From contig NIVC01001330.1 in assembly GCA_002269645.1 (NCBI GenBank), positions 248,001-312,000 on the forward strand: 64,000 bases of DNA, written 5' to 3'. Positions 3 to 64,000 of the stretch are shown in pieces. The translations under genes were made by a program, and so were the position numbers. Source of the DNA: Macrostomum lignano. Taxonomy: Eukaryota. Each line of letters starts with the position of its first letter. Position 1 is the stretch's first letter. Under the pieces are notes generated by a model. The model did no database searches, was not told the origin of the DNA, and worked only from the letters and a program-made list of their open reading frames with translations.

Positions 3-3000
3 CCCGCCAATCTGCTAACGCCGCCGCCACCGCCGCAGCAGCAGCAGCAGCAAACTGGCGAGGAGGAGACGCTGCCGCGCAGGCAGATAAAACTGGCGCC
101 CCTGGTCATTGTACAGCAGCAGCCGCCGCAGCACATTCTGCCAGAGGTTCGCCTTCCGCCCGCAGTACCGCCGCAGCTGCCGCCGCCGCCGTCGCTGCCG
201 CCGCCGCAGTCGAGTCTCAGACAGTCGATCCGGAGCCAAGCAGCCGCATCCAAGCAGTGCCGCGGCTGCACCTGCTGCCAATGCAAGTGCCGCCTGATCC
301 GGCCCAGAGCGCAGCAACGCACGGCCGGCAAGTCGGCTTCCATGGAAGTATTGCTGGAGGAGAATCCAACTGAAGCGCACGATTTCTCCTACCTGGGCGG
401 AGCCGAGCTCACGGCTGCGATGTCCTTCGATCGGGGCGCCGCCGCTGCAGCAGCAGCCGCCAGCGGAACAGGGGGAGTCGCTGCCTCGGCTGCCAACAGG
501 GCGGGCAGCGGGGGCGTCATCATTGCCGGTGGCGGCGGGGGCGCTCCCGGGGTGCCGATCTCCTCCTCGGGCGATCTCCGCCAGTACCGGCACCAGCAGC
601 AGCGACTCGGAGCTCTGACTCGGACGCCGCGTCAGCGCAGTGTCACTGCCGAGTGCAGCTCCATCAAGCCCGGCGACCGACTGGAAGAGGACGACGCCCT
701 GATGGGTCACCGAAGGCACAGCGACACAATGATCAACGAGACTGGTGCTGGGGAGCATCATCACCACCACCATCATCATCACCACCACTGCTGCGCCAGG
801 CGGACCGAGCGCTCCTCGGACGCTTCCCGCAGTCGAAGCGGTCTGACAGACGTCGGCGCTGACTTTATGCGAGTCAACGGCGCCATCTCGGGCTTCAGGC
901 AGCTAAAGAGAGTCCAGGCGCTGTCCAGCCGAGGCTCCTCATGCGAGGAGGACAGCCGCACCAAGCAGCCGCAGCAGCAGCAGCAGCTGCAGCATCAGTC
1001 ATCAACGTCGCACCAGTCGCAGCACCTGCTGCAGCAGCAGGCATCGCAGCAGTCACAGCAGCTGCAGCCAGATCCCGATGCTGGCGCTTCGCTGATTGGC
1101 CACGCCGCTGGGAATGACTACCTGCAGGGCGACGCGACTACCGGGATGAGCCAGTCGCCCAGCCACAGCCGCAACGTTGGCTACAGACTGGGCCGGCGAC
1201 GGCAGCTGTACGAGAAGCGGAAGCGACTGTCCGACTACGCCCTGGCATTCGGCATGTTCGGCATCGTCATCATGATTATTGAGACCGAACTCACGATGGC
1301 TAAGCAGTACACCAAGGTTGGTTTTTTAGTTCATTTGTGATTGCACTTGGTCTCTTAATGCCCATTGAGGTGGGGGGGGGGGCTTGCAGCGCTGCCGTAC
1401 AGTCGACAGTCGACTCCTGTACAACAGACAACAAGGTTGTACATGGGGCTTCTTTGAATTTCTAATCGCCAAGCATGATGTACACTCACTGATGTACACT
1501 CTCTGATGTACACTCTCTGATGTACACTCTGTGATGTACACTCTCTGATGTACACTCTCTGATTTACACTCTCTGATGTACACTCTCTGATGTACACTCT
1601 CTGATGTACACTCTCTGATGTACACCCTTGAGGGTTGGCCTTTGGATGATTTGGATGAATGATGTGATTTCGAAAACACACTGGCAGTGTGTGCAGGCAG
1701 ACACTGTAACCTCTTTGTACAGTGTAGGCTCACCTTCTGACTCATAATTTTCAAAACCCACTTTGAGGCCGCGCCTTCAGTGTACATTGAGGGGCAGAGA
1801 AATTAAAAGCGATCGATCATTCTACAGAGATGGACGGCACTGCTAGCCGCAGACTGTGGTCCAAAAGTACAATAGGCCTAATTATCTTAACGGAGTTGAG
1901 TAATCCCGGCTTCACTCCGAACGTCAAGAACGCCAGAGCTATTCATGATTTATGGAACTGCCGGGCTGAGGGGTGGCAGGGGTGGGGGCCGATCGAGCTG
2001 ATGGCAGTCTGCTCGCTTTCTGGGAAAGGCGAAATGCTTAACCCTCGGATCCCCCGGGCCAATTCGCTGATTGCTTCTCCCCTTCTCTCTCTTCTCTCTC
2101 TTCTCTGGCTGTCTAACCCTCTGTCTCAATTCCGCTAAGCAGAGAAATCTGAGACTTCTCTCTGCCCGTATCAAAATAGCCCCCCACCACTAGGCAGTTC
2201 CTACGCAGCCGTGGCTGTGCAGCCGACTTTTTATCAAATTACCCAACCTCCGAGCCTCGCTTTTGCGTTCTGAGACTCACGTGCTCTGGGGGCTATCTGA
2301 CTGAGATTAGGGATTAGCGGCCACCCTATGACGGTTCGATTCCACCCTAGGAGGGACTTTACAGAGATTTACGCGTGCCACAGAAGATCCCATAGGAGCA
2401 GCACAGAGGCCTTGGGTACAGTCTTGAGTGATTTTAATACTCAATAGGGCAAATGTAATTGAATTCAAAAACGAATTTTTACTCATATTGGCTGACTTCA
2501 ATATCTTGCTTGGGAAAATTTATACAAGCCATAGGCTTTAAATTCTTCCTAAGAACCTATTCAAGGGATTTGGCACTGGTCCCAGGGCGTTATTCCAGTA
2601 TCTGAAGGACTCGTCGAGTGTCTGGCCTCGCTGAACCGACGCTCCTCTTGAACTGGTTCAAAGCAGCGGGCATCCCTGCTGCTAAATAATGCACAGCCAG
2701 CTCTGTCTGTCTGTCGCAATGATGCAGCAGGAAATGCAAAACTATAATCAGATTCCTTCGGAGCGAGAAGCGAGTTGGGAAAGAGAAGGGAGAATTTCCC
2801 AAGGGGACTGGGCTGGCTGGAGCCGCACTGCACCCCCCTCTTTTGCCCCGACATGACAGCGGCAGGAGGGGGGATGGAACTGGGAAGGATAAAGGCAGAA
2901 ATAACGAATGTTTTTTTGTAAATGAAGCAGCTTCAAGACGTCCATCGGTGGCTCGAGTCCGGGAGGCAACCCAGATAAGAGCTGCCCCACTTGATGGATG

Positions 3001-6000
3001 CGAGGGCGTCGGTCGAAACAAGGAGGTGGGGGTGGCATGAACAGCCGGCCTCCTCTTATATCTCTTCTGAATTTTTCCAATCATTTTAGGAAAAATGAGC
3101 GATGCAGTGCCAAGTGAGTCATTTGGAGATGCATGGGCAGCTGGGGAGTTGAGCAACTGGGCATTGTTTGGTGGCATGGGCTGGTTAGCTCAATAATTCA
3201 CTATTTTATATTAATGCCATCAACTATAAACGACGCTGGCTGCCCCTCTAAATTCAAAGAACTGGAACTGCTTTCTCTCTCTGAGGAAGTGGCTCCCCGC
3301 CTCTGAGAGCTCTGGAATGGGATTTAATAACATTATTCGTCATCAATGATGCATAAAGCCGACGCGCAGGCATTTTGGGATGGGGAGGGGAGAGCAGCAA
3401 AGCAAAGGCAAGAAGGCGTATGGCGATGATATTACTGAGTCACAGCCCATTATTGACTGAAGCCCCTGGATAAACACACAGAGCGGCAGAACTAACGCTT
3501 TTGAGGAGAAGCGGCAGCAGTGCGAACTCCTACTGCTCTGATTTCTGAGCTCTACTCCTCTCGGAATCCACTGCTGGGGGCTTCTATATTTAGCTGAGAA
3601 CTCGTTTGACAGGATTGCAAAGCCTGCGTGATCTCTTGATCGAATCTGGGTGCTGACAAACAGAAGTCATCGGCTTCATATAATTTATTCATATTTGACT
3701 CATTTTCTTGGTTATACAAAAATTAGCAAGGCCTCTAGGGCTGGATGGAACTCCAGAGAAAGTAACCTGAAATGTCTTTGGGGGAAATGGAAAAGTAGCA
3801 AAGAGCTATAATCATGCTCCCCCCAAGGCCTTGTGGTCATTTATTAGTGACTGAGAGTGCATTAGCCCAGAGAAAAGGCAGTCAAACAGAAGCGAAAGTC
3901 TCTAATGGGACATCCTTCTAAGCAGCCCCAAAGTCTGGTTTTCTGGGGCCAACGTAGGCCTCTTCTCATCCTCCGGAGTCCCCCGATGAACTACTAATCA
4001 CCGTCCAGCTTTTGACTGAAAGTATCCCTGGCAGAATGCAGCAAGATTCCAATCCGGTCTTTGCCTCTCCTTCATCGTAGCAAGAGATCTTTAGCGAATC
4101 TTCAGTCTCCTGAGCCTTTCAAGCCCCATCCTCCTTGATGGCGAGGCGGAAAAGGCCCTCAGCCCACGAGTGAGTATCTCTTTTAGAGACGAGAGAGAAG
4201 AAGATCCGTCTCCATATTTCCCCATGTATCAACAACCCGCAGGCGGACATCTACTCCAAGGTGCTCCGCTCGCTGATCAGCATCTCCACGGTGATTCTGG
4301 TCGGCCTGATTCTCGGCTATCACATGCTTGAGATACAGGTAAGTACTGGAGACTTTTGATAACTGCTCTTACCGTTTCAGTTTGGTATCGCGAAACTCGA
4401 TAAGCGACACCCTGAGCCCGATGTTAAAAGATAACAAAGTCGATTCCGTGTGACTAATAATAAAATTTTCAGCCCAAGAGTGTCCTGTGCTAAATATAGA
4501 AATCAAGTGCAGTAAAACGGTCCAGCTAGAGTTGAGGCAACATTCGCCAGTCTCATAGAACTCATCATCTTGTTGTTAGTCGGCAAGTCAGGAACTTGTC
4601 CAACCACTGAAAAGTGCAACTAGATTACAGATTTGGCTCCAGCAGCCCGGGCCGGCCTCATCAAATTCTGAGCGTGCGCATGAGCTACTAAGCCATCAGT
4701 TCTTGCTCTCATCACGCTGTCCTGTAGACCAGCTGTGCTCAGGCCTCTCGCTTGAGAAGTCCACATCCTGCAGTTGACAGGTCGGCAATGATGTCTCAGG
4801 ACAGCCAGACACTTGAACATGGCACAGTGAGCCGGACTCAACAGGACTCAAACTGCTCAGCTGATCCATCTGGGGTATTTATTTCTAATTGAAGCAGCTT
4901 CCCGAGAGGCTGACAGAAGCTCCTGACCTGCAGCCGTCGATATTATACGATGAGGTTTTGCAGGAGGCGGGGGGCAAGCAGATACATAAATAATAAGGAC
5001 TAGCGAGATGCTGATACAACCTCACTTCATCGCTGCAAAGGTGACGTTGAATTATTCATCACTGTCCGTAGCGCATTTTCAGTAGCGTAGCCGAAAAAAA
5101 AAATTTTGAAAAACAGGCCCCCGAGATGCCCTAGGGAAGCGCGAGGGGTGCAGATGTACATCAAGTCACGGGGGGATTCGCGCAAGGCAGACAGAGATAA
5201 GAGACCTGAGCGAAGTGCTGTCTTTCGGCCTTCACCTGACCCCATAATTGAGACACTGCTTTCAAACTGTATTTACGACAGCAACGAGGACAGAAATACC
5301 TACAGCGGGTCCGGCTATGCGCAAAGTCGGAGCAGGAAAAATCCCATCGCAGTTGAAGCCGGTTTACCGCCTTTTTATCGTTCGCCAGCGGCTGCCCCAA
5401 GCAGACTTGGCAAATGCCAACAACAAGCAATATCACTTTCTGCCTCTGGTGGAAACTTATTACTTTCTGTCTGCTTTGCCCCGAGGCACCTCAAGGGCTG
5501 GTCCGCGTTCGCTTAGCTTTTACCGCAGCTGCGGCATCCGCATTTTGCTATTCGGACTTTAATGTTTTGTCCTCCCATTAACCTGCAACTTGGAAGCCAG
5601 AAAACGTTTGCCTTACCCGTGCAAACCAGAGACGAGACGGACCACAGAGGCCTTGTCAGCAAAATTGCTTCTTACTACTACAGCTTGTATGCTCTCTTTC
5701 TTGTACCCAAGTGCAAGCTGCTTGAAGTCTACTGGGACATTCTGTATAGTATGGCTATGGAAGCAGCGAATTAACGTTTCTCTTTAAGTCTACGTCTAAA
5801 GACGGTTTTTCATCTGTGACAGACAATTACCTGTAGTACACCTGTTCGTACAGGACTCATCCTAGCTAGCTAGCGCGGCGCTCTGATGTGCCAGCGGCCC
5901 ATGCTTGATTCCAAGTGCAGTCCCAATTATTTGGGGCTAAATTGGAACCTCGGCTTGGCTCTGCTAGTGCAATTTACGCCCTTGAGGACCAGCTCCCAAA

Positions 6001-9000
6001 GCACAATAAAATAGGGCCGCTGTAAACACCTGTGTGTGTGTGTGTGTGCGTATGACTGCGTACGTATCCGCGCGCTTGTGTGCCTGCCTAGGGGAGTTGA
6101 TGGAATGGGCAGCAATGCCTCTCGCCGGTTGTGTGACAATGTCGCTTGAAGTGCGCCACGCGTGCACACACAGCCCCCATATCTAAAAAAATCCTCTGAA
6201 TTTTTATGTGTATTTGAATATCAAAGCTTCTGGGTTGCAATATTGTTATTCATACGTACTCACTGACTCCACCGCAATTTCAGCTGTTCAGCATTGACAA
6301 CTGCATAGAGGATTGGCGAATCGCTATTACGACAAGAAGATTGACGCAGATGCTGATGGAGGTCATCGTCTGCGCAATCCACCCGGTGCCCAACGATCTG
6401 ACGTTTAACTGGGAAACCTACGTGCCGCACGACAGAAAGAAAGTATCAGTATTGGTGCCCATCGACTTATTCCTGTCGCTGCCCATGTTCCTGCGGTTGT
6501 ACCTCATCTTCCGGGTGATGCTGCTGCATTCCAAGCTGTTTACAGATGCCAGCTCCAGAAGTATCGGCGCCCTGAACCGGATCTCGTTCAACACGCGATT
6601 CGTACTGAAGACGCTGATGACAATGTTCCCCGGCACTGTGCTGCTGGTCTTCATTCTGTCGCTATGGATCACCGCCAGCTGGCTTCTGCGGGCTTGCGAG
6701 AGGTTCGAATTTTTTGAGATTTTTTGTTCTTAAGCTTGGTGTCATCCTCAAAGCGGCTTGACGATTCACAGGCCTGATGCTTCGTAATTTCTCTTTTTCA
6801 AGCTCGCTACATTGCCAGCTCAATACTTTACCAGCTCGATACTTTACCAGCTCAATAGTTTACCAGCTCGATAGTTTACCAGCTCGATACTTTACCAGCT
6901 TGATACTTTACCAGCTCGATACTTTACCAGCTCGATACTTTACCAGCTTGATACTTTACCAGCTCGATACATTACCAGCTCGATACTTTACCAGCTCGAT
7001 ACTTTACCAGCTCGATACTTTACCAGCTTGATACTTTACCAGCTCGATACTTTACCAGCTCGATACTTTACCAGCTCGATACTTTACCAGCTCGATACTT
7101 TACCAGCTCGATACTTTACCAGCTCGATACTTTACCAGCTCGATACTTTACCAGCTCGATACTTTACCAGCTCGATACTTTACCAGCTCGATACTTTACC
7201 AGCTCGATAATTTACCAGCTCGATCCTCGATGTTCGAAGTTTCACATTGTCTCCAGTAGTGATTTTTTATCACGTGACTTAAGTAAAAATGGTTATCGCT
7301 TTAAAATTTCGAGCTTATGATGCTTTGAGCTTCCTAGTGGGTCGAATAGCTTGTATCATTACAGGCTCGTTAATGACATACGTTGTCTATAGTAGCTGAC
7401 AGCATTTTTGCCACAGTCCTAACTAATTAAATAAAGGTAAATCCTCACGTATTTCCCTTTTCAGCTACCACGATGCTCTACACGGAAATATACTCAACTC
7501 AATGTGGCTGATCTCCATCACCTTCCTGAGCATTGGCTACGGAGACATTGTGCCCAACACCTACTGCGGTAGGGGCATTTCCATTGCCACTGGAGTAATG
7601 GTAAGTTTGCAGAGCCGAAACCCAATCGATCCTAACGTGAAGAAAAATCAAGGTTTGATCACATGTCGCTGCTTAGGCACAAACTAACGCAAGGAAATCT
7701 TCAAGAGCTTTGCTTTAAAAAATCTGACGCACCGTACAATGCGAACGCCCTGCCGCCTTTCCGCTGTTTGCCAGGTTTCAGGCTTATGGGTTAAAAATGT
7801 CTAGATTGAGTCCAGGAAATGAATAGGGGTTGGGCAAATCGATTGATTGACTAGCTACCTCGGTTAGACAAGTTTGACTCCGAGTACGGGACTGAAAATG
7901 CTTGCCAGATCTGAAAGCTCCACAAGAGTTTAAAAATGTTTGTGATTGTTTCTGCCGGTTGAGCAGAAAAGTTTAGCAAAGGAATCAGACGGAAGCTAAA
8001 CACGTTCTTTACTGGCACTAAAACCCGTCTCCTTGTTAGTCCTTTCCGAACAAAGTTCTCAACTGGCTGTCAGCCTATTTTCTCTAAAGTTCTTGCTATA
8101 GCAACGTCACTTGGCTCAGCTCCATCACCGCCGTTACACACACAGCTGCCCTGTTTCTCCACACCTTTGTTTGTCTGGCCTATCTCGGAGGCCCAGCTGT
8201 AGAGAGCTGCTCTCCGAATGCGTTGCAAGTTTTCGAGGGCCGGGCAGCGTATAGTCTTCTTTAGTACTTGTAGGTGGGGCAACTCTGGCCGGGGCCTCGC
8301 TTTTTCTGGCAAATATTCGGCGCGAGAGAGCAAATAATCAGCTAGGAAGAGGAGAGGATAAAGATGGAAAGAGGGGATGGATGGAGAGATCTTCTGGGAA
8401 GGAGGGCTCCGCCGATGGTGCTGGGGTGTATTGGCTCAATTCTACTGTGCCTTTAACCATGCCATTTTCTCCTTCTATTTCACAGCTAGCAGGGGATCAG
8501 AAACCAACAAAGTTGGCCACACCCAAAGCCTCTCCTTTTCACCCCCCCCCCACCCTGGAATTAAGCCCTCAGCTCTAGCGATATGATAAGCCACTCCAAA
8601 CTCGACCCTTATTCAAGCTCTAGCCGCGCGGAGTCAGGCAGGGGTCGGCCATATGCATCACTTGGGTCTGGCTGATCCACTTTTCTCGAAAAAGTTCTCA
8701 CCATCGCAGGCTGGCCCACACCAGCAAAAATCTGCCTCATTGATTCCGGTGGGAAGCCGCTCCCTATATCTCCACAAAGTAGGCCAAGCAGAAAACCTGA
8801 GACATGCGTGTCAGATATGCAGGTTATTTCGTCGCTCTGTGCCCCTACTCACTCAGTTTTCCGCCTTGAAGATAAATTTCTGCTCTAGATGTCTGTCTTA
8901 AAGGCTTTCAAAACCAGGATTCACGCAAGTGCATTTTAAAAAAATCTCCAAAGTCCATCTCAGCTCTGTAACTCCCGCCAGGGATTACGACTTTCAATGG

Positions 9001-30200: not shown

Positions 30201-33200
30201 TAGCAATGCCGAGTCAATAACTGATAATTAAATTAATGAGGCGCCTCTTTGACAGTCAGTCAGCAGGGAATCAGTCTGCTCAAATGCAAACTCTACAAGG
30301 TGGAGAATATTTAGAATTCATAGCTAGCTGCAAATGTGACATATTAGCCTACTGACACTAGCAGTATGGAAATATTTAATCTGTTTTTAATTTACACCAA
30401 GTATACGCATCACATCTACCTGGATGTTCCAAACCTAGATCCAACGCCCAAGACATGAGACCCCATTCAGACCCCATACTAGAGATCCCATCCAGATCTC
30501 ATACTAGATATTCCATCTAGATCCTACAACAGAGATCCCATACTAGAGATCCCATCCAGATCCCATACTAGAGATCCCATCCAGATCTCATACTAGAGAT
30601 CCTATCCAGATCCCATCCAGATCCTACAACAGAGATCCCATCCAGATCCCATACTAGAGATCCCATCCAGATCCTATACTGGAGATCCCATCCAGATCCT
30701 ATACTGGAGATCCCATCCAGATCCCATACTAGAGATCCCATACTAGATATTCCATCCAGATCCTATACACTAGAGATCCCACCCAGATCCCACACTAGAG
30801 ACCCCACACTCACTCCATATCTAAATCCTGTCCCGCGCTGGCCCACAGCGAGTCTGAGTCGTCTCCAATGGCCACCCCGTAAGCCTCGAGCAGCGAGTCC
30901 ATCTCCAAGGTGCTGAGAACCATGTCAACGTCTCTCTCGCCATCAGCATCGGCGAAGTCGTCTCTGCTGGCCTCCAGCTTCTTGTCGAAGCAGGGCATAA
31001 CAGTGAGGTGGTACACCGAGACGGCCTGGGTGTCCCCGTCCTCCTCGCTTCGCTTCCATTTGGCCGGGAGCCACCGCTTGACCAGCGCGCCCGATACCTA
31101 TGGGGTGGAGAGCGGTTGCGCTAAGAGATCCCATCATCCCACACTCCAAACCCACAGATCCCACACTCCAAATCAACAGATCCCACACTCCAAATCCACA
31201 GATCCCACACTCCAAACCCACAGATCCCACACTCCAAACCCACAGATCCCACACTCCAAATCAACAGATCCCACACTCCAAATCCACAGATCCCACACTC
31301 CAAACCCACAGATTCCACACTCCAAAGCCAAAGATCCCACACTCCAAACCCACAGATCCTATTATCCGACACTCCAAACCCACAGATCCCACACTCCAAA
31401 CCCACAGATCCCACACTCCAAACCCACAGATCCCACACTCCAAACCCACAGATCCCGCACTCCAAGCACACAGATCCCAAACTCTAAACCCACAGATCCC
31501 ACACTCAAAACCTAAAGATCCCACACTGCATTTTCTGATCCCACACTGCATTTTCTGATCTGACACTGCATTTTCTGATCCCACACTGCATTCCCAGATC
31601 ACACACTGCATTCCCAGATCCCACACTGCATTCCCAGTTCCCACACTGCATTCCCAGTTCCCACACTGCATTCCCAGATCCCACACTCCATTCCCAGATC
31701 CCACACTGCATTCTCAAATCCCACACTACATTCCCAGATCCCACACTGCATTCCCAGATCCCACACTCCAAACCCACAGATCCTATTATCCGACACTCCA
31801 AACCCACAGATCCCACACTCCAAACCCACAGATCCCACACTCCAAACCCACAGATCCCACACTCCAAACCCACAGATCCCGCACTCCAAGCACACAGATC
31901 CCAAACTCTAAACCCACAGATCCCACACTCAAAACCTAAAGATCCCACACTGCATTTTCTGATCCCACACTGCATTTTCTGATCTGACACTGCATTTTCT
32001 GATCCCACACTGCATTCCCAGATCACACACTGCATTCCCAGATCCCACACTGCATTCCCAGTTCCCACACTGCATTCCCAGTTCCCACACTGCATTCCCA
32101 GATCCCACACTCCATTCCCAGATCCCACACTGCATTCTCAAATCCCACACTACATTCCCAGATCCCACACTGCATTCCCAGATCCCACACTCCATTCCCA
32201 GATCCCACACTCCATTCTCAGATCCCACACTCCATTCCCAGATCACACACAGCATTCACAGATCCCACACTGCATTCCCAGATCCCACACTCCATTCCCA
32301 GATTCCAAACTCCATTCTCAGATCCCACACTCCATTCCCAGGTCCCACATACTATTCCCACATCCCACACTACACATCCAGCTGATCCCATACTCCATAT
32401 AACAATTTGCCACACTAAATTACAAGCGGACATATCTTTCATTATCAGACTCCAGACTAAAGACTAAAGAAGACCAACCTGTTGCGGAGAGCGAACCCTT
32501 GACACCAGAGGCAGCAGTGCCGGGTGAGTCTTCTCAGCATAGCAGATCCAACCGGGACACGCCGAGGCCAGCATTGGCAGGCGCTTCTCAAGACCATCAT
32601 CTCCCCGCCGCTGCCACCTGTCACAGAACTCCTCAGCCATCTCAGCCAGGCACAAGCTCCTAGCAGACGAGCTGTTCAGCACAGTCCTGGCGCCGAGACG
32701 GAGTTTTAAAAATGCGGCTAGTCGGCGAAAGCATTCGGCGAAACCGCCATTGACTTGGTGACGGGCAGCCAGACTTGAGCAGGACTGAGGCGAGATGGTC
32801 ACCACCAAAGCTTTGGAAGCTGCTGGCAGGGTAGGCAGAACCGACAACAACGCTGTGTGGCTTTGTTGCTCAACCAGCACAGCCTCCGCTGAGGTCACGC
32901 AACCACTGCAGGCGAGACAATCAGCCAGGGTGATCTCAGCCTTCGGCAGCTGGTACTCCTTGCCATCCTCAGTGACCCCCGTGTACTGCCCATCCTCTCC
33001 GATGCGGATGCGGGCAGTGCGACCCACGCTCTTGTCAACTCTGACTGGCTTAATGCATTCCTGCGATGGTGGGGTTTAGTGGGTTGGTGATTTGAGATAG
33101 GAGGGCCATGGGCACCTTGGTGTATTTGAATTGACATTGTCACACAACTGACAAGAAGCATTATGACCTATTTTGCCAACTCTCATTGAGGAAGCACTCA

Positions 33201-55850: not shown

Positions 55851-56118
55851 AGTAGTATAGAAAAAGACGCTTCTAGACCCAGAGCACTTTTTTAATGACC
55901 GTTTTAAGGGTCTAGAGGGGGGACACGGGGGGTAAATAAAAAAACACATCTAAACACCATTAATACATCTAATCACCCATAATCACCCCTAACAATAAAA
56001 ATCACTTCCCAACACTTCCAAACACTCCCCAACACCCCCCTCGCGTCCCCCCTCTTAAGACCTTAAAAACGGCCATTAAAATAAGGTCTGATCTGTAAGC
56101 GTCTTTTTCTATACTACT
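55851..56118. repeat. Terminal imperfect palindrome (~85-bp arms) at the Polinton left end
   Basis: agtagtatagaaaaagacgct (55851-55871) is an exact reverse complement of 56098-56118; similarity extends to ~55935 / ~56035. Confidence 0.9.
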
Positions 56119-56175
56119 ACTCTATAACCCCTTGCCCGCGCCGCAGGCGCGAAGGGTCTTTTTCTGTTACTAAAA

Positions 56176-56490
56176 ATGACCCGAGTTTACACCTTTTCTG
56201 TTAGTGATACTTTTGAGACTGTTGCTAAAAATGCAGAGATAATAAAACAACATATTTTGAATGGAATAATTGATGAAGTTTATTTAAAATATGACGACAA
56301 GCATGACCTAAAGCTTTATCCATTAGAGCTAGATGAGATGTATGATTTAGAACAAGAGGGTGAGTTAATATTTCAACTTGGAGATTATTTAAATTCGGAT
56401 GATTGGGAGGTTAGATCAACAGATTCCGAATCAACAAATAGTTCATATGAAACCAGTGATTCAGAGAATGAAAGTGAAATTTTTATGTGA
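56176..56490 (+). CDS. Polinton hypothetical acidic protein, 104 aa
   Basis: Open ORF with AAAAATG start; very Asp/Glu-rich C-terminus. Confidence 0.6.
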   Translation: MTRVYTFSVSDTFETVAKNAEIIKQHILNGIIDEVYLKYDDKHDLKLYPLELDEMYDLEQEGELIFQLGDYLNSDDWEVRSTDSESTNSSYETSDSENESEIFM

Positions 56491-56506
56491 AAAAAATATT
56501 TAAAAA

Positions 56507-56731
56507 ATGAACTATTATTCTATAACAGAAACGACGTTTATTATGAAAAATATATATAAAAAAATGAAGGTAAATTATTCCTACATCGGAAATGTTCCAA
56601 TTAATGAACTTAATGAAAATTTAAGTTTGATAACAGTTGAACAAATGTCAATAATAATATTAGTAACAATAATAGTAATAATATTGTTTTTGTTTGTAAT
56701 AAAAAATTTACTACCATGTTGTCTTAAGTAA
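56507..56731 (+). CDS. Polinton small single-pass membrane protein, 74 aa
   Basis: AAAAAATG start; hydrophobic SIIILVTIIVIILFLFVI followed by K...PCCLK. Confidence 0.55.
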   Translation: MNYYSITETTFIMKNIYKKMKVNYSYIGNVPINELNENLSLITVEQMSIIILVTIIVIILFLFVIKNLLPCCLK

Positions 56732-56741
56732 CTGTTTGAAC

Positions 56742-58349
56742 TTAGTTCGCAGACATTATCTGGTTCTCATAAAAAGAACCCAATATTTCTTCACCATCCT
56801 TATCAGCAATTATATAGGTTGTAGGATTTGTATTTAAAACTTTACTGATGGTAAATTTCTCACTTATTTTCCAATATCCTTTTCTTCCCTTTTCAAACTT
56901 ATCTTTCCATTTATAGATATAAACAGAATCACCAACCTTAAAACCTTTAGTTTTCTTTTTTTCAAAATCTCCAAAAGTAACCCTAACATTTTCAGGATTG
57001 TTATAAGCTTGTTGAGGAGTCATCTTTATCGCCGAATGATATGAATTGTTATAATCTTTCACTACCTCTGGTAATATTTTTACCCATTTTTGGTTACCAT
57101 TAAGACTAAACTGAAACCATAATTTCTTACCTAAAGTTCTATTAAATCTTTCTATTAATGCGTTTTTACTCTCTCCATAAATAGAATAAATTTTATTAAT
57201 ATACTCCCCATTCGCGTCCTTTTTCCTTTCTTGTCCTTTTTCAAAATGATACAATTTATACATGTGAGGATTGTAAAATTCTTTTCCTTCGTCAACACAC
57301 AACCTTTCACTTTTTTCTCCAAGACTTCTAAAAGCAGCAGCAACCTCCTCTCCCTTTTTGGATTTTAAAGGAACAGCCCACGCGTATCGAGTAAAACCAT
57401 CTAATATGGTTAAGATATATTTATATCCTCTTTCGTTCGGCATCGACATTAAATCAGCATACCAAATTTCATTCTTTTTGAAGTTCATGATTTTTCTATA
57501 AAATTTAGGTTTTCGATATTCTTTATGAAGAATCTTTGCCTCATCAGAACTTAACCCGCCGCCACTTAACAACAAACACTCAACACAATTATTTCCATGT
57601 TGATTATAATTAATTCCCAAACCAAATTTAACTTTAGACTGCAAGATCTTTTTAACCATCCACCTAGTTAATTTTTGACCTACCGATAATCCCTGCAAGT
57701 TATCTAATCCTTGAATCATTTTTTGATCGGCTTCATGTTTTAATCTTAATGCTTCCTCGGGTGTGTTCTTATCAGCATCTCTGTATGCTAAGTCATGATA
57801 GTATGCTAACCAATCAATTCCATTTATGGGAATTGAATCGGCTTTTGGGGTGTCATCAGGATTTAATCTCAAATCTAAGCGAGTGCCGGGTAGTTTACCC
57901 TCAATCTTTCGAAAGAGGCTGGAGCACACCTTAAGCGGCGATAATTACCGCCCATCTCCGTCTGCTCTCTGAACCTTCTCCTTATATTTAAAATACTTAG
58001 GAGCTTGGCTGCGCATTGCCACCGTGTCTTCAAGCTTTTTACCATCGAACCATAGGTTCGCGGACGAAGTCCGATTGGGAAGAGGAGTTACCTCTGTTCC
58101 TTCAAAAGATTTCTCAATTGAAGTGGTACTTGAAGCTGTATGACGGGTTTCACGCAATTTGGAGATGTCGCCACAAATAGTGACTAGCAAGGACATTGCC
58201 TTCCTCACTCAGGCCACGGGTTAACCTGTGAAGTTCATTGATGGTAGGTGTAGCTCACCCGTATACCTCCCAGTAGTAAATATTGGTGGTAAGCTTGTTA
58301 ATCCTTTTTGAACATCTAAAAATCCTCCTTCAAATACTATTTGGTTCAT
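56742..58349 (-). CDS. PLA2X (parvovirus-type phospholipase A2)-retroviral-like integrase fusion; exons 58349-58224 and 57890-56742 joined by a group I intron; 424 aa spliced
   Basis: Exon 1 gives MNQIVFEGGFLDV...GELHLPSMNFTG and exon 2 gives PGTRLDLRL...PINGIDWLAYYHDLAY...EAD (PLA2 Ca loop, HD and D). These are followed by the rve DDE core WYADL / CVDEGKEF / IERFNRT and YNNSYHSAIKMTP. Confidence 0.88.
57891..58223 (-). ncRNA. Group I self-splicing intron (IC1-like, 333 nt, no internal ORF, apparent omega-A)
   Basis: P1 exon CAGGU / GCCUG with U.G at the 5' splice site; P3 CAUCUCC(58167-61)/GGAGAUG(57959-53); P4 UGCGUG/UGCGCA; P5a with A-rich bulge; P5b GAAA tetraloop; P6a CUCCU/AGGAG; P7 G-A(bulge)-GAGCA(57969-63)/UGCUCC(57926-21); P8; J8/7 UUAAGGUG; P9 GAAA; P9.0 AG/CU. 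Removal restores NFTG|PGT in frame. Confidence 0.9.
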
Positions 58350-58833
58350 TTTTAATGTTTAAAAAACATGTTTCTATCAATTTAATAATTTCTAAATATT
58401 GGTCACCATATAAAAAATTTAAAGCAAATTCCCCAGTTAACAAGGTAACTCCATTATCAAATACTTTTTGTACGGGGTTTTTAGTAGTATTATTAATGCA
58501 AATATAATATAAATCAAATTCGGGATTAACATATTTAAATTCTAATAACTTTTGAATATTTCTAAATCGACTTGATGAATTATCTGTGTTATCAGAAGAT
58601 TTTAACTCTAACGCAACTTTTCTTTCTGTATGAATTAAATCAATTTTATTTACTTTTTCAAAACCAAAATGTTTAATAGCTAATAATTCATAAAGAGATC
58701 CAAGTCTCATTTGTATTGTTTTAATACGGTTTGCAATTATTAATTCATCTTGAAATATTTTATTTAGTATTCTGTCAGAACCAACTTTATCATAAATAGG
58801 CTTACAAAGGTGGTCTTTTATTGTTTCATCCAT
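58330..58833 (-). CDS. PD-(D/E)xK restriction-endonuclease-like protein, 167 aa
   Basis: ATAAAATG start at 58833; motif Q-x-RLG-x-LYE...IDLIHTERKVALELKS-x2-NT (D...ExK). Its stop overlaps the PLA2X ATG by 20 nt. Family assignment is by motif only. Confidence 0.6.
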   Translation of the reverse strand: MDETIKDHLCKPIYDKVGSDRILNKIFQDELIIANRIKTIQMRLGSLYELLAIKHFGFEKVNKIDLIHTERKVALELKSSDNTDNSSSRFRNIQKLLEFKYVNPEFDLYYICINNTTKNPVQKVFDNGVTLLTGEFALNFLYGDQYLEIIKLIETCFLNIKNEPNSI

Positions 58834-58861
58834 TTTATAAAAAAATAAATTTAACAATTAA

Positions 58862-59533
58862 TTAAACTCCAGTATGTCCAGCAGCTTTCGCAGCAGCTAA
58901 AACAAGTTTTCGCGGTGTTTTAAATCCATCACCAACAGCTGGTTTGTTATTTATAGAATTAACAATCCATTTATACAAGCTGGTATTTTTAACAGCTCCT
59001 CCTAACTCATCATAAAAAATTCTAGCACTTATTAATTCATCCCTAGTATATAAATCGGGGTTAAATTTTACCCTAGGGTTCGTAATAATATTAAATGCTC
59101 CGCCCAATTCTCTATATAGTTCATTTCGATCTTTAACAACGTTACCAATTCGATAATTACCACCACCTAAATCTGTCACAGCAATACTAGTTGGTGCAGG
59201 TCTCGGATATTGTTCAACTCCACCCCTAATCTCTTCACGTCTAATTTCTGCAACTCTAAATATTGCTTGATCAGTCTCATAAGCAGGCGGCTCATCCAAA
59301 ATTTCATCCTCTTTTGGCTCCGTATTTTTAGCAATTTTTTCCAGAAGATCTTTATCTGTTTTTTCTAGTTCACTAATTTTCCCAGTAATAGGATTAACAA
59401 AAGGAGCAGCAAATCTTTCACCCGCTAATTGTATTCCTAACTTTCTTTTTTGTAAATTCCTAACAAAATCAGAATATCTTTGCTTCTCTTTATAAATCGC
59501 TAACTCTCCATCAACGTCCATAAATTGACTCAT
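58862..59533 (-). CDS. Polinton hypothetical (possible virion core) protein, 223 aa
   Basis: Intact ORF with AAAAAATG start; C-terminal LAAAKAAGHTGV recalls the A-x2-AGNTG motif of Polinton core proteins. Confidence 0.6.
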   Translation of the reverse strand: MSQFMDVDGELAIYKEKQRYSDFVRNLQKRKLGIQLAGERFAAPFVNPITGKISELEKTDKDLLEKIAKNTEPKEDEILDEPPAYETDQAIFRVAEIRREEIRGGVEQYPRPAPTSIAVTDLGGGNYRIGNVVKDRNELYRELGGAFNIITNPRVKFNPDLYTRDELISARIFYDELGGAVKNTSLYKWIVNSINNKPAVGDGFKTPRKLVLAAAKAAGHTGV

Positions 59534-59567
59534 TTTTTAACATAAAAAACTTTTTTAACTTAAAAAA

Positions 59568-61090
59568 ATGGCTGAAACAAAAACTATGTGGAGTGATAAA
59601 TTTCATTTCAAAAAGCACCGACAGTATATTAATGAGGTCAGAGCAAGAGATTTAAATTATACCCTACCAACAAGTGATAATTCAAATAACTTTACTACTG
59701 GAACGGTAACTTTTGACATCGGCGCAACCAACACTATATTGGATATGAAAAATGCGTTTTTCCGCGTTAGATGGTTGTATACTAGAAATGATGGAACTGC
59801 TCTTGCAGCCGGAGATATCGCAGATCGATCCGGAATAATAATAGAAAATGATTGGTTTTATAAATGTTTTTCCCAAGCAAAACTGTTAATGGTGCTGAGG
59901 TTGAGACATCATCAAACCCCGCAGAGATTAATGGAGTTTTGAAACATTTAAATTATACTTATTTATCAAAACAAGTTGGTGATAATGTTGGGTGGATGCC
60001 GGATAAAGGTAACGGTCAAGCAGTAGTTTTCCCTAATGTACAAAACGCAGCCGGTGCAGATACTGCAGCGCTAATTGTTTACCTTAATACAAACATAGTT
60101 CCAGTTGTAACCACTATGACTAATACAAAAGATATTAATACTGGTTTTATAGATCGTCAGAATAAATTCCCAGTCGCGGTTTTAACCACAGCAACAGCAT
60201 ATGAGCAGGACTTTTCAATCTTTCCACTATTTGGGTTTTCTCACCAAATCGGGTATGGAAAGGATTAAAATTTGGGATACAGTTGCAAATATCTGGTGGA
60301 TATCAGCCTAGGATACTTTATGGAACCTCAATTTCAACCGATATAGCAGTTCGTATAGATTCAATTCAATTAGTCGTACCAACTATTGAGGTAACAGCCC
60401 CACTTTTAAAACACATCGATAATCAGTTAACGCATGATCAGGAAATATTTTATTTGAATCGTCGACATTTTATGCGAACCATTAATAATAACCAGGATTC
60501 ATTCCAGTGGCAAATACTGACATCAAAACGTCGGGTGAGATATATTTTTGTTTGGTTTAAGATAACAAATAGAAGGAGTAAAAGAGCAAATGGGATTTAT
60601 ATTGGCTTCAATCCGGTGCGCATAGCAGAACAAGCAGCCACCGCAACAGACAATGCGGCTGCAGCTATTAACGAGTTTAATGTTCAGAATATCCGCCTGC
60701 AGGTTGATGATCAATATTATCCGGTTAAAGACCCCCTAAATTTAAATATAGCAAATAATAATGTTAATGATTTTATAAAATATTATCAAGATTATGCTAA
60801 AAATGAAGCGTATGCCGTCCCTCAGTACACACACAGAGTTTCTAAACATTCATCCAGTGGTTGTTTATGATCTAACGGCACAGAAAGAAAACGTAGCCAA
60901 TATTGGACTTAATTATATGTTAGAGATTAATAAAACCGGTAATCAGGCACTTGACGCCACGTATTGTTTCTAGAGGAATATATGTCAATTGCTAAAGCTG
61001 ATGCACGATTGTTCGGGACGCACTTTAGCTCGCACTGCAAAGCATCAACACCTGTAAAAATGGTGCAGGTCTCGACCGTCGCGCTATTTA
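59568..61090 (+). pseudogene. Major capsid protein (double jelly-roll, Polinton-type), frameshifted
   Basis: Three consecutive ORF pieces (59568-59942, 59864-60268, 60283-60870+) with beta-rich motifs VTFDI...LDMKNAFFRV, RVRYIFVWF and FNVQNIRLQVDDQYYP-x2-PLNLN; 3' end approximate. Confidence 0.7.
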
Positions 61091-61105
61091 AATTATTTCT
61101 TTAAA

Positions 61106-61866
61106 ATGGTAAAGGCAAAACACGATAAGATATTCCAAATGATCCTTTTCTTTGTTTAGTAATTGGTGGTCGGGTAAAGGAAAAACACACTTGTTTATCG
61201 ATTTATTAACAACGATGGAATGCTAGACTATAATAATTTAATAATATTATACTAACAAACCTAGAATAAAATATTATGAATTTCTTAAACATGGATTAAA
61301 AAACAAATTAAAAAAAGATGTCTTGTTTAGAATGTTAAGAGCATATGAGCAATATGAGGATGATGACGAACCGCGATTTAATCTAGCAGACATTGAGGAT
61401 TTATGTAAAACAATGGCACAACAGCCAGAAAACATCACCGATCGCCCCGAAGGGTCGCGGACTTCGTCCGATCGCCCAACTGTATAGAGTATCAACCCGA
61501 TTAGCCTATGATCAAATTCCAAACATGATAAAACACTAATTATTTTTGATGATTGTATTAATGACGGTGATCAAGAATTGCAAAAGGAAATTTTGTTAGT
61601 GTGTAGAGGAGATGGAATTGGAGCTTTTTATCTTACTCAATCCTTTAGAGAATTAGAATCGATTATAAAAAAGAATGCTAGCTTGTTGTGTAATGTTTGA
61701 TTTAGATAACTATGATCTACAAAATATTCACGCTAGATTTAATCCCGGGATTGGATGCAAAACCATTTAAAAGTATGTGTAAAAAAATTTGGGATGATAG
61801 CCAATACAAACATATTTATATCAATCCGAGGTTAGAAAGGAAAAATAGAATTTAAAAAATTTGATA
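61106..61866 (+). pseudogene. A32/FtsK-like genome-packaging ATPase, frameshifted
   Basis: Walker A region LVIGGxGKGKTHL (broken by an indel), Walker B LIIFDD and YLTQS motif. Confidence 0.8.
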
Positions 61867-61940
61867 AAAGACGATGAGGAAGAAGAATGATCGTCCCATA
61901 GGTCGCGTACCTCTCGGTACGTTAATTTCCCACTATAAAA

Positions 61941-62722
61941 ATGACTACAAATTTAAATACTATAAAACACATTGGTAGATCGAACTAATTCAAAATTTAG
62001 TACAACATTACAGTTATAATGACAACCAGCGAGCAACGGATTCAATTGCGCGATCCATTACAATTGATCAAAGCCTAAGTTATCAAATAGGTTTAATACT
62101 ATTTTCGGTTTTCAACATGCCTCAATTAATTAATGCAACAAATAATCAATTTAGATATTTAAGATTCCGGAGCCAATTGGAACAACATTTAGCGCTTAAC
62201 CCAGGAGCGTATAGCTATACTGATTTGAATGCTTATATAGAAGGAGAATTAACAACTAATGGTGATTGGTAGCAGGAGCAATTGTTATAGGTGTTGATTT
62301 ACCGTCTGGCAGATTCACACTATCACTAGGATCCGGATATCAGGTTGATTTCACAATTGCAAATTCACTCAGAACCATACTTGGATTTAATTCCCGAATA
62401 GTTACCACATCAAGCACCGGTGATACAGTTGGAAATATAGAGGGTGGAGTAAATACAATTAATATAACAACCGACATATCAAACGGTGGTTATATAACAG
62501 ACGATAACGGAGTTTTGGTTCAACGTGGAATTATTTATTCAATCCCATTTCTTGCTGTTCCAATTGGAGAGAAAATGATTGTATCACCTCAAACCCAATA
62601 TATTACCCATTAAATCAATATAATGTTCAATCAATTTATATTAGGATTGTAGATGAAAGCGATAGATTAATAAGTTTTGGTGGGCATCAATAACATAATT
62701 TTTACGTATAAAACAGGTTTAA
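61941..62722 (+). pseudogene. Minor capsid protein (penton), frameshifted
   Basis: Pieces with NATNNQFRY, PGAYSY, LRTILGF, NTINITTDI, IIYSIP, ending LRIKQV*; typical Polinton penton pattern. Confidence 0.7.
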
Positions 62723-62915
62723 TCGTATGTAAAAATGGGTAATAATAATATAATTTAACTAAAAAAACAATCAGAAAAAGTTAAAAAAGCTGAAGATAAT
62801 TACGAACTAGAACTAGCAAAATTAAGGCAGTTACAAGCTGATAAAATAAGAAAGGAATTGTTAAAACCCACACCTACGAAACTAACTAAAACCAAGAGTT
62901 TTTCAGGAACATAAA

Positions 62916-63351
62916 ATGACCATGACGTGGGATGATTTTAAACAAAGATATGGAACGACACAACAAGCAATATCGAATTAACAAATTGGGCGAGGCAGTT
63001 AAAAATAAAACCATTCAGATGTGTTATGCGAGATGAGATAAAGACTTACCACAATATGGATCTTTCATTGTTAATATTGAAACAACAAAAGAAAATGGTG
63101 TTCATTGGTCAGCAGTTTATTCAAAACCAAAACTTGTTTATTTTTGATTCATACGCGCTTCCTCCGTTACAGGAAATAAAAGACAAATTTAATCATACTA
63201 AAAATCGTTTATGTGGAGATCATCACGAACAATTTCAAACTTTGATAAAAGTTATTGCGGGCAAGCGGCGTTGTATTTTTTATATCGACTTTCGAATGAA
63301 GCTCGTGTAAACCCCGAAGTATTTAAGACTATTTTAGACTCTATAAAATAG
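62916..63351 (+). pseudogene. Adenain-like cysteine protease, frameshifted
   Basis: Catalytic motifs across frames: GVHW (His), FDSYALPP (Asp) and Q...YCGQAALYFL (Cys). Confidence 0.8.
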
Positions 63352-63361
63352 ACAGTAAAAA

Positions 63362-64000
63362 ATGTTATTTTCTGGAACACCCTCATGGAACGGAACAACA
63401 AGTAGTCTGGTGGTGGCACATCTGGGGAATAAGTGTTACATTTGGAGATAATCGATATATTAATGAAGATGAAGGTTATAAAAAAAGTGAAGTTGATACT
63501 AAACTAAATTTAAAAAGAAACGTTGCAGATTCCTATACTAAAACTCAAATAGATGATTCACTAAATCTGAAACGGAACGTAGCCGATTCCTATACCAAAA
63601 CCGAAGTTGATAATTCATTAAATTTAAAACGCAATACAGCCGATTCTTATACCAAAACGAGAGTTGATAATTCATTAAATTTAAAACGCAATAACGATTC
63701 TCTTATACCAAAACCGAAGTTGATAATTCATTAAATTTGAAACGGAACGTAGCCGATTCTTTATACCAAAAACCGAAGTTGATAATGGATTAAATTTAAA
63801 AAGAGATGTAACTGATTCTTATTTCGAACTGATTCTGATTCACGTTATGTTCAAACCCCGCAAACGCGGAAACCTAGATATGAGCAACAACCGAATTATA
63901 AATGTTTCAATTACAACTAGTGATTCAGTGGTTGATAGAACTATGTCGATAATCAAAGTTGCCACTCGTTGGTAATATTAATATGAATAATTTTAAATTA
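63362..64000 (+). pseudogene. Fibre/spike-like protein with 57-bp (19-aa) coiled-coil repeats, frameshifted, partial
   Basis: ~6 repeats of YTKTEVDNSLNLKRNVADS (63480-63830) followed by LDMSNNRIINV. Confidence 0.55.

Follow-up and report, generated by a model that had tools for sequence, protein, structure and literature searches.

One end of the 64,000-nt stretch analyzed here (contig NIVC01001330.1 of Macrostomum lignano, positions 248,001 to 312,000 of the forward strand; herein referred to as the window) is occupied by a Polinton in which a gene fusing a phospholipase A2 domain to an rve integrase is split by a group I intron and is directly preceded by a gene for a small PD-(D/E)xK nuclease (table 1). 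An earlier note on this DNA had pointed out the pair, and its account of the locus has held: the nuclease open reading frame (ORF) of 167 amino acids, with its D...ExK motif, is intact; its last 20 nt overlap the start of the phospholipase gene (PLA2X in that note; ATG at 58349); the distance from its stop codon to the 5' splice site, put at about 105 nt, measures 106 nt; and the intron encodes no endonuclease, its longest frame being only 83 amino acids long and lying across the ribozyme core, with loops devoid of ORFs. The phospholipase A2 domain and the integrase belong to one ORF of 424-452 amino acids (56742-58349 in the window; L190:7775-9046 and L193:1369-2724 elsewhere), whereas the PLA2X of PMC8502044 has, in the accessible text, a C-terminal protein-X-like domain.

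Table 1. Features of the nuclease-intron locus and of the element that carries it, in window coordinates.
Feature	Position	Strand	Remarks
Free-standing PD-(D/E)xK nuclease, Eco47II/EcoO109I type, 167 aa	58330..58833	-	ORF; predicted catalytic D65, E76, K78; predicted homodimer
Phospholipase A2-integrase gene, exon 1: 42 codons, of which the last is GGT (Gly)	58224..58349	-	Joins exon 2 in intron-less L064, L103, L121
ORF-less group I intron, 333 nt	57891..58223	-	Rfam RF00028
Exon 2, first codon Pro; remaining phospholipase A2 domain and rve integrase	56742..57890	-	Pfam PF08398, PF00665
Conserved gene, 223 aa, no assigned function	58862..59533	-	Left border of the exchangeable nuclease slot
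Polinton (adintovirus-like)	55851..64000	.	From AGTAGT terminus to window end; GGNCC = 0 in 8,150 nt

The intron scores 61.1 bits against RF00028 (gathering score 50; E 6.4e-14), and both of its boundaries are set by the three intron-less copies named in table 1, in which exon 1 and exon 2 abut with a gap of 0. Its core is IC1-like by eye; read from the sequence together with the Rfam alignment, the exon-terminal U faces a G of the guide and forms the U-G pair of P1 at the 5' splice site, and P7 retains the G-C pair of the guanosine site, with neighboring positions compensated relative to the intron of a second Polinton subfamily (L155). The intron ends in A, without the terminal omega-G, and is on that feature a variant of the group I class. 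The earlier note mentions neither this terminal A nor the integrase fusion. Within the subfamily of the window copy (herein subfamily A) the last intron base is A in 76 and G in 28 of the 104 introns scored, near-identical recent copies being among those that end in A, and all 22 measured introns of the second subfamily (subfamily B) end in G. Exon joining in vivo without a terminal G is on record for ND5-717 (PMC6545197). A 3' splice site 9 nt upstream, which would end the intron in G and add three codons, was rejected, as that G lies in the P9 stem and both the intron-less copies and the G-ending introns of subfamily B align to the A; a bigger intron, with its 5' splice site ahead of the nuclease gene and the gene enclosed, was rejected too, as exon 1 is conserved and contiguous with exon 2 in intron-less copies. 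No holder is on record as RNA, and contigs from 4 of 20 holding runs contain no intron-skipping joint; these contigs are possibly DNA and are hence uninformative on splicing.

Other introns were also encountered. In 24 places (L023-L026, L092, L098, L105-L113 and others) the same site holds a second type of intron, ~325 nt long, which has the P5 extension in common with the first type but whose core differs and looks IE-like by eye; exon 2 beside it starts with other residues and forms no GGNCC, and Rfam did not detect this type in L023 or L105. The subfamily-B-like locus L258 carries the intron without the nuclease; it lacks the 3' core and has a tandem array in the P6 region, built of units of ~22 nt.

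The predicted model of the nuclease (predicted local distance difference test, pLDDT, 89) is one compact domain without a separate DNA-binding module, its motif residues lying at strands 66-68 and 73-80. Among 48,161 representative chains EcoO109I is the only one with Z>=8 (Z 9.7, root-mean-square deviation 3.6, 165 residues aligned), and the four chains returned by Foldseek at E<=0.001 are EcoO109I twice, AvaII and DdmD. On these models the 167-aa protein has the core alpha/beta restriction-endonuclease fold of the PD-(D/E)xK superfamily, and the nuclease fold that the earlier note had wished to see checked is thus borne out. The fold matches listed do not include I-Ssp6803I, although a relation may still exist; a profile search of PDB sequences gave no significant match, and a search of IMG/VR for relatives gave 201 pattern matches, of which 0 were confirmed. 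The Pfam family RE_Eco47II (PF09553) matches 27 of 30 nuclease homologues scanned (from 150 listed) at E<=0.01, many of them above the family cut-off, and one homologue carries a fused C5 methylase, the best plasmid matches to which are loci pairing a methylase with Eco47II. In an alignment of 48 sequences D65, E76 and K78 are each at least 90% conserved, and the Asp of the motif is not preceded by Pro. A homodimer is predicted with a score of 0.48 against 0.00 for the best control (contacts agreeing at >=91%, pLDDT >=82), a mark reached by 21 of 30 solved pairs and by 0 of 23 single chains, although the score may reflect likeness to solved dimers. Free-standing copies have an intact ORF in 26 of 37 cases, and all 26 retain the three motif residues; the other 11 of the 37 are broken. 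With pN/pS (nonsynonymous relative to synonymous change) of 0.15-0.23 against eight divergent variants, the nuclease is under purifying selection; against four near-identical variants the ratio is 0.48, 0.97 or undefined, on 3-5 changes.

The same nuclease occurs inside the intron in relatives of the window element. At L155, in subfamily B of the same genome, an intron of 880 nt at the same site carries a nuclease 66% identical to that of the window in its P2.1 loop, the place at which the window intron has a short hairpin with a 5-nt loop; the nuclease ORF lies in this loop in L222-L243 too, and the metagenome contig L161 has the layout of L155. The intron-borne form gave 43 matches at ~39 places in the genome (40 of 158 candidates scored), and of 25 such stretches fetched, 22 have an intron of 836-895 nt and 15 an ORF of 228-250 amino acids. 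Subfamily B also includes ~20 intron-less copies, and 23 of its 25 split genes are on the list of intron-borne nucleases. Database homologues of the nuclease continue at their C terminus into translated intron core (seven flagged, and P0003 by eye). IMG/VR yielded no relative of exon 2, and a single locus came out of the 15 matches of the metagenome scan; evidence for co-occurrence beyond this genome is thus limited to L161 and these protein tails. Since these relatives are encoded within this very intron, at an identical insertion point, the 167-aa protein belongs to the intron's own nuclease family and is probably the homing nuclease of the neighboring intron.

The fold and Pfam matches also suggested a recognition site. 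EcoO109I recognizes RGGNCCY and AvaII GGWCC. Homologues of Eco47II cut GGNCC (PMC10305163, in the text available), and the intron is inserted between a Gly and a Pro codon, which together always spell GGNCC. Because the nuclease points to enzymes that cut GG-N-CC and the intron splits this Gly-Pro pair, we predicted, ahead of counting, that GGNCC would be absent elsewhere in the element. Indeed, the window element contains 0 GGNCC where 10.5 are expected, a count reached in 0 of 200 shuffles, and none of 32 palindromes is more strongly depleted. A single site, against ~281 expected, was counted in 255 kb of subfamily A (29 stretches, all with an intron), and three intron-less subfamily-A copies contain 4, of which 3 are the insertion site itself. 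When 136 gapped words are compared, GGNCC ranks as the most depleted in each of four elements; the Gly-Pro dipeptide is seen 3 times against 128 expected, and in the polymerase half all 5 stretches have at most one site (0-1) inside the terminus (the sites of L218 fall outside the element terminus). A GGNCC is formed at all 21 readable intron-less junctions, as GGC-CC in 19 (L064 and L148, for example) and GGT-CC in 2 (L103, for example; 4 of 10 extra intron-less or fragmentary subfamily-B stretches had no readable junction). The bulk of the depletion signal comes from GGWCC (0 against 9-11 in subfamily A and 0 against 4-7 in subfamily B), yet GGSCC is also at 0 against 3-4 in subfamily A, which leaves the likely specificity between GGNCC and GGWCC. 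That a word of 5 bp has vanished from whole elements speaks for a short rather than a long (~20 bp or more) recognition site. A scan of the larger element ORFs, from both halves of subfamily A and part of subfamily B, turned up no methylase.

The position of the free-standing nuclease, between the 223-aa gene and the phospholipase gene, is an exchangeable slot that more often holds a zinc-ribbon/HNH-like gene of 189-209 amino acids (91 places: L027-L030, L064, L190:7225-7791 and others). The exchange spans the start codon to shared last codons; there are several diverged HNH-like versions, and other genes also occur in the slot. The HNH-like gene has no Pfam match, and Atlas HNH clusters at 0.87-0.89 only provide a lead; its label otherwise rests on a motif seen by eye. 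Slot and intron were counted at 147 distinct places (150 of 511 candidates scored, plus one further search, with 13 duplicate loci removed; L134 was counted as intron-bearing on blastn, and L147 is truncated). In subfamily A the nuclease stands with an intron in 37 of 37 copies and the HNH-like gene in 88 of 91, and six slots are other or partial.

A tree of 40 rows with Eco47II-like outgroups bears on how the two layouts are related. Nine free-standing proteins form a group (100/100) nested in a clade (96/93) with L155 and P0001-3, whose sister group (L161, P0004, P0006, P0008) is mostly intron-borne, and forcing the intron-borne rows into one clade gave p 0.037 in an approximately unbiased (AU) test (nine rows of known or tail-inferred context against free-standing rows and outgroup). 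These results favor, short of establishing, an exit of the nuclease gene from the intron to the upstream slot; the collaborative-homing model, in the available text of PMC3984707, proposes the opposite move, from free-standing to intronic.

We consider it probable that the gene encodes a restriction-type nuclease, likely a homodimer cutting GGNCC or GGWCC, and that the intron, by splitting the lone site that the element has kept, likely confers immunity on the element and likely spreads by copying into intron-less rivals that the enzyme has cut; cleavage, splicing and homing by the pair are all inferred from sequence. The following sequence of events would account for the data. The nuclease dimer would cut GG-N-CC, and the element would have recoded every GGNCC except that of the Gly-Pro in a phospholipase loop, where the intron would hide the site in DNA and restore it only in RNA. 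A 5-bp site would thereby become unique in a genome of 15-20 kb cleared of the word, allowing a restriction enzyme to act as a homing endonuclease: a rival that lacks the intron and is otherwise cleared would suffer one break, at the insertion site, to be repaired from a co-infecting or resident intron-bearing copy. The nuclease gene probably left the P2.1 loop of the intron for the slot upstream, giving the free-standing layout, and in the slot, where it trades places with the HNH-like gene, it would work in trans on a population of elements nearly all of which carry the intron. The full version of this account, in which a 5-bp restriction enzyme homes since its word has been erased except at an obligatory Gly-Pro, the ribozyme serves as immunity, and the gene has left its intron against the textbook direction with both stages kept in one genome, is more tentative, and we would put it at somewhat under an even chance.

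Several observations weigh against this interpretation. The HNH-like gene is the slot gene in 88 of the 125 intron-bearing copies that have either gene, and the absence of intron-less copies among nuclease carriers (0 of 37, against 3 of 91 HNH-like copies) is within chance (p 0.36). Each of three intron classes is found with either slot gene, in much the same proportions (p 0.25), as under independent assortment, and L023 and L024 have a nuclease 98-99% identical to that of the window beside a different intron. The gene has therefore moved without the intron, and the intron, standing beside the HNH-like gene in so many copies, can do without this nuclease in cis. Nothing speaks more strongly against nuclease and intron as a tightly linked homing unit than this independence, which a nearly fixed intron would lead one to expect. 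The proposal of the earlier note that nuclease and intron spread together survives in part. Every free-standing copy adjoins an intron, relatives of the nuclease are encoded within this intron in other elements, and the sequence itself suggests why the cut site would be protected; a pair that travels as a unit is not supported, and the co-occurrence check that the note asked for gives a nuclease that has an intron beside it in all copies counted, together with an intron indifferent to the slot. The direction of the move is weakened by our first AU test, in which ten intron-borne rows, including two of unknown context, gave p 0.066, so that a single clade was not rejected. The match of the window nuclease to PF09553 is weak (E 3.8e-4; 20.6 bits, below the cut-off of 25.9), and long targets are a stated hallmark of homing endonucleases (PMC3943268, in its accessible part).

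The depletion of GGNCC has weak points of its own. Host DNA also has fewer sites than expected (77 against 154, ~0.5), and four unrelated Polinton families have observed-to-expected ratios of 0.32-0.68, not zero (codon shuffling, 15 stretches), so the fair expectation for a whole subfamily-A element is about half the shuffle value, still well above zero; these control families are richer in guanine and cytosine (GC; 46-56% against 32-38%). The counts come from related copies and amount to about one test per subfamily. Family C, an unrelated, GC-rich family of the same genome, avoids GGWCC (2/10.5, 1/8.9 and 3/8.9 in L202, L205 and L206) and not GGSCC, and no nuclease or intron was found in its stretches; its avoidance is possibly a bystander effect. 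CCNGG and Pro-Gly are depleted about two- to threefold in subfamily A (L168-L192, L217-L221), perhaps through a second specificity, and show no depletion in subfamily B. As the target of the nuclease CCNGG was rejected, given its normal frequency in subfamily B and its position outside the insertion site of the intron. Finally, a 5-bp cutter would harm the host chromosomes, a cost for which the model does not account.

Part of this evidence would be met by an enzyme that cuts GGNCC in rival viruses or host DNA without any homing, the intron being self-protection in place of a methylase and spreading through the destruction of unprotected genomes. The independent assortment of slot gene and intron speaks for it, and the avoidance of the site in HNH-carrying copies and in family C is what bystanders of a general cutter would exhibit; moreover, chlorovirus restriction enzymes are used against host DNA and marseillevirus ones have been proposed to act against co-infecting viruses (PMC7253447, in the text available). 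Against it, mobile introns are laid out as those of subfamily B and the metagenome contig are, with the gene inside; the single cut that a site-cleared rival would receive falls precisely where the intron inserts and provides the substrate for homing; and the same site is occupied by two different intron types; we regard destruction without homing as unlikely, at roughly one chance in several. That the nuclease is instead a conventional long-site homing endonuclease of restriction-enzyme descent, with GGNCC lost to another agent such as the restriction system of a helper giant virus or composition, would fit the intron-encoded layout of the relatives, the long targets of known PD-(D/E)xK homing enzymes (PMC3943268, as far as its accessible text goes) and the partial depletion of GGNCC and GGWCC in host DNA and family C, and the problem of host toxicity would disappear. 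It would require a coincidence of three things, namely fold and Pfam pointers to GG-N-CC, GGNCC as the most depleted word and GGNCC as the word split by the intron, and the predicted model is a single compact domain with no separate module for DNA binding; we consider this the less plausible of the two. Least of all do we believe that the nuclease is a chance neighbor that has nothing to do functionally with the intron, being just an accessory or decaying gene that a hypervariable slot has picked up: the slot does accept HNH-like and other genes, and broken nuclease copies are not rare, but the same family within the same intron elsewhere, purifying selection and the coincidence of the site make this very improbable. 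The alternative named in the earlier note, an ordinary restriction-like accessory gene, is partly right, in that a 5-bp restriction-type site is indicated, unlike the long site of I-Ssp6803I; the two readings combine more than they conflict.

The element runs to the end of the window, 221 nt short of the end of the contig, and sister Polinton copies have pPolB and a Pox_A32 packaging ATPase (Pfam). At the terminus (55851-56121) the first ~20 nt are repeated inverted ~250 nt inward, such that the end could fold back, and the Polinton is inserted in a tandem satellite interspersed with CT runs. Its capsid-side genes (59568-63975) are broken into several frames relative to sister copies (for example a 490-aa ORF in L168), through either decay or assembly errors. 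Elsewhere in the window, an intron-split SK potassium channel gene (PF03530) and an iron-hydrogenase-like gene (PF02906), at 3-6733 and 32464-33075, fit an animal host.

Among known systems, the closest in layout is F-CphI with the psbA intron of cyanophage S-PM2, a case of collaborative homing (PMC6083498 and PMC3984707, in their accessible parts), in which a free-standing nuclease likewise adjoins an ORF-less intron. This parallel, drawn in the earlier note, is good for the arrangement and fails for the enzyme, F-CphI being of the Endo VII type (PMC6083498); here the fold is of the PD-(D/E)xK restriction type and the carrier a eukaryotic virus-like element in an animal genome. The predicted site here is of 5 bp and is avoided element-wide, free and intron-encoded layouts occur in one genome, and the tree favors exit from the intron, opposite to the free-to-intronic path proposed for the phage system. 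With the Eco47II family (PF09553), EcoO109I and AvaII the window nuclease shares fold, catalytic motif and predicted dimer, and homologues are fused to or stand beside C5 methylases; it is, however, ~100 amino acids shorter than EcoO109I and falls below the Pfam cut-off, and with no methylase among the ORFs scanned the element seemingly owes its protection to site loss and the intron. I-Ssp6803I is a tetramer from a cyanobacterial intron. It too is a PD-(D/E)xK protein linked to a group I intron, with a long target (PMC3943268, in its accessible text). The restriction-modification systems of chloroviruses and marseilleviruses also place a prokaryote-type restriction enzyme in a eukaryotic DNA virus, with a cognate methylase and, in the available text of PMC7253447, without a protecting intron. 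The pair resembles F-CphI/psbA in layout and a type II restriction enzyme in fold, a likeness that stops short of demonstrated membership in either.

RF00028 introns of 309-376 nt have been described in a Polinton-like protein gene, in Paulinella, Desmodesmus and Rhodomonas only, and with no nuclease assigned in the accessible text (PMC12220804); the introns analyzed here belong to an animal genome and come with a candidate partner nuclease. Collaborative homing has been raised as no more than a prospect for Polinton-like viruses in the available parts of PMC11296320 and 10.64898/2026.10.13.758929; such an intron goes unreported in those of PMC8502044 and PMC10748475, and that of PMC2441816 only lists enzyme families. 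We found no report of a nuclease-intron system of this kind in the literature within scope, which excluded subscription journals and supplements (PMC12220804 tables S11-S12, PMC8502044 Fig. S1).

Nuclear group I introns are, in the accessible text of PMC3679873, otherwise confined to the ribosomal DNA (rDNA) of microbial eukaryotes, and the introns described here are placed in a protein gene within animal chromosomes, in contrast to that rDNA-only description. If our interpretation is correct, these Polintons would provide a eukaryotic case of collaborative homing in which free-standing and intron-encoded forms serve the same site in one genome, making the route between the two forms directly testable, and the tree suggests that this route may be run backward. 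The nuclease would break the rule that homing endonucleases have long sites, its specificity arising from a cleared genome and not from the enzyme, and the pair would constitute restriction without modification, with a ribozyme as the immunity.

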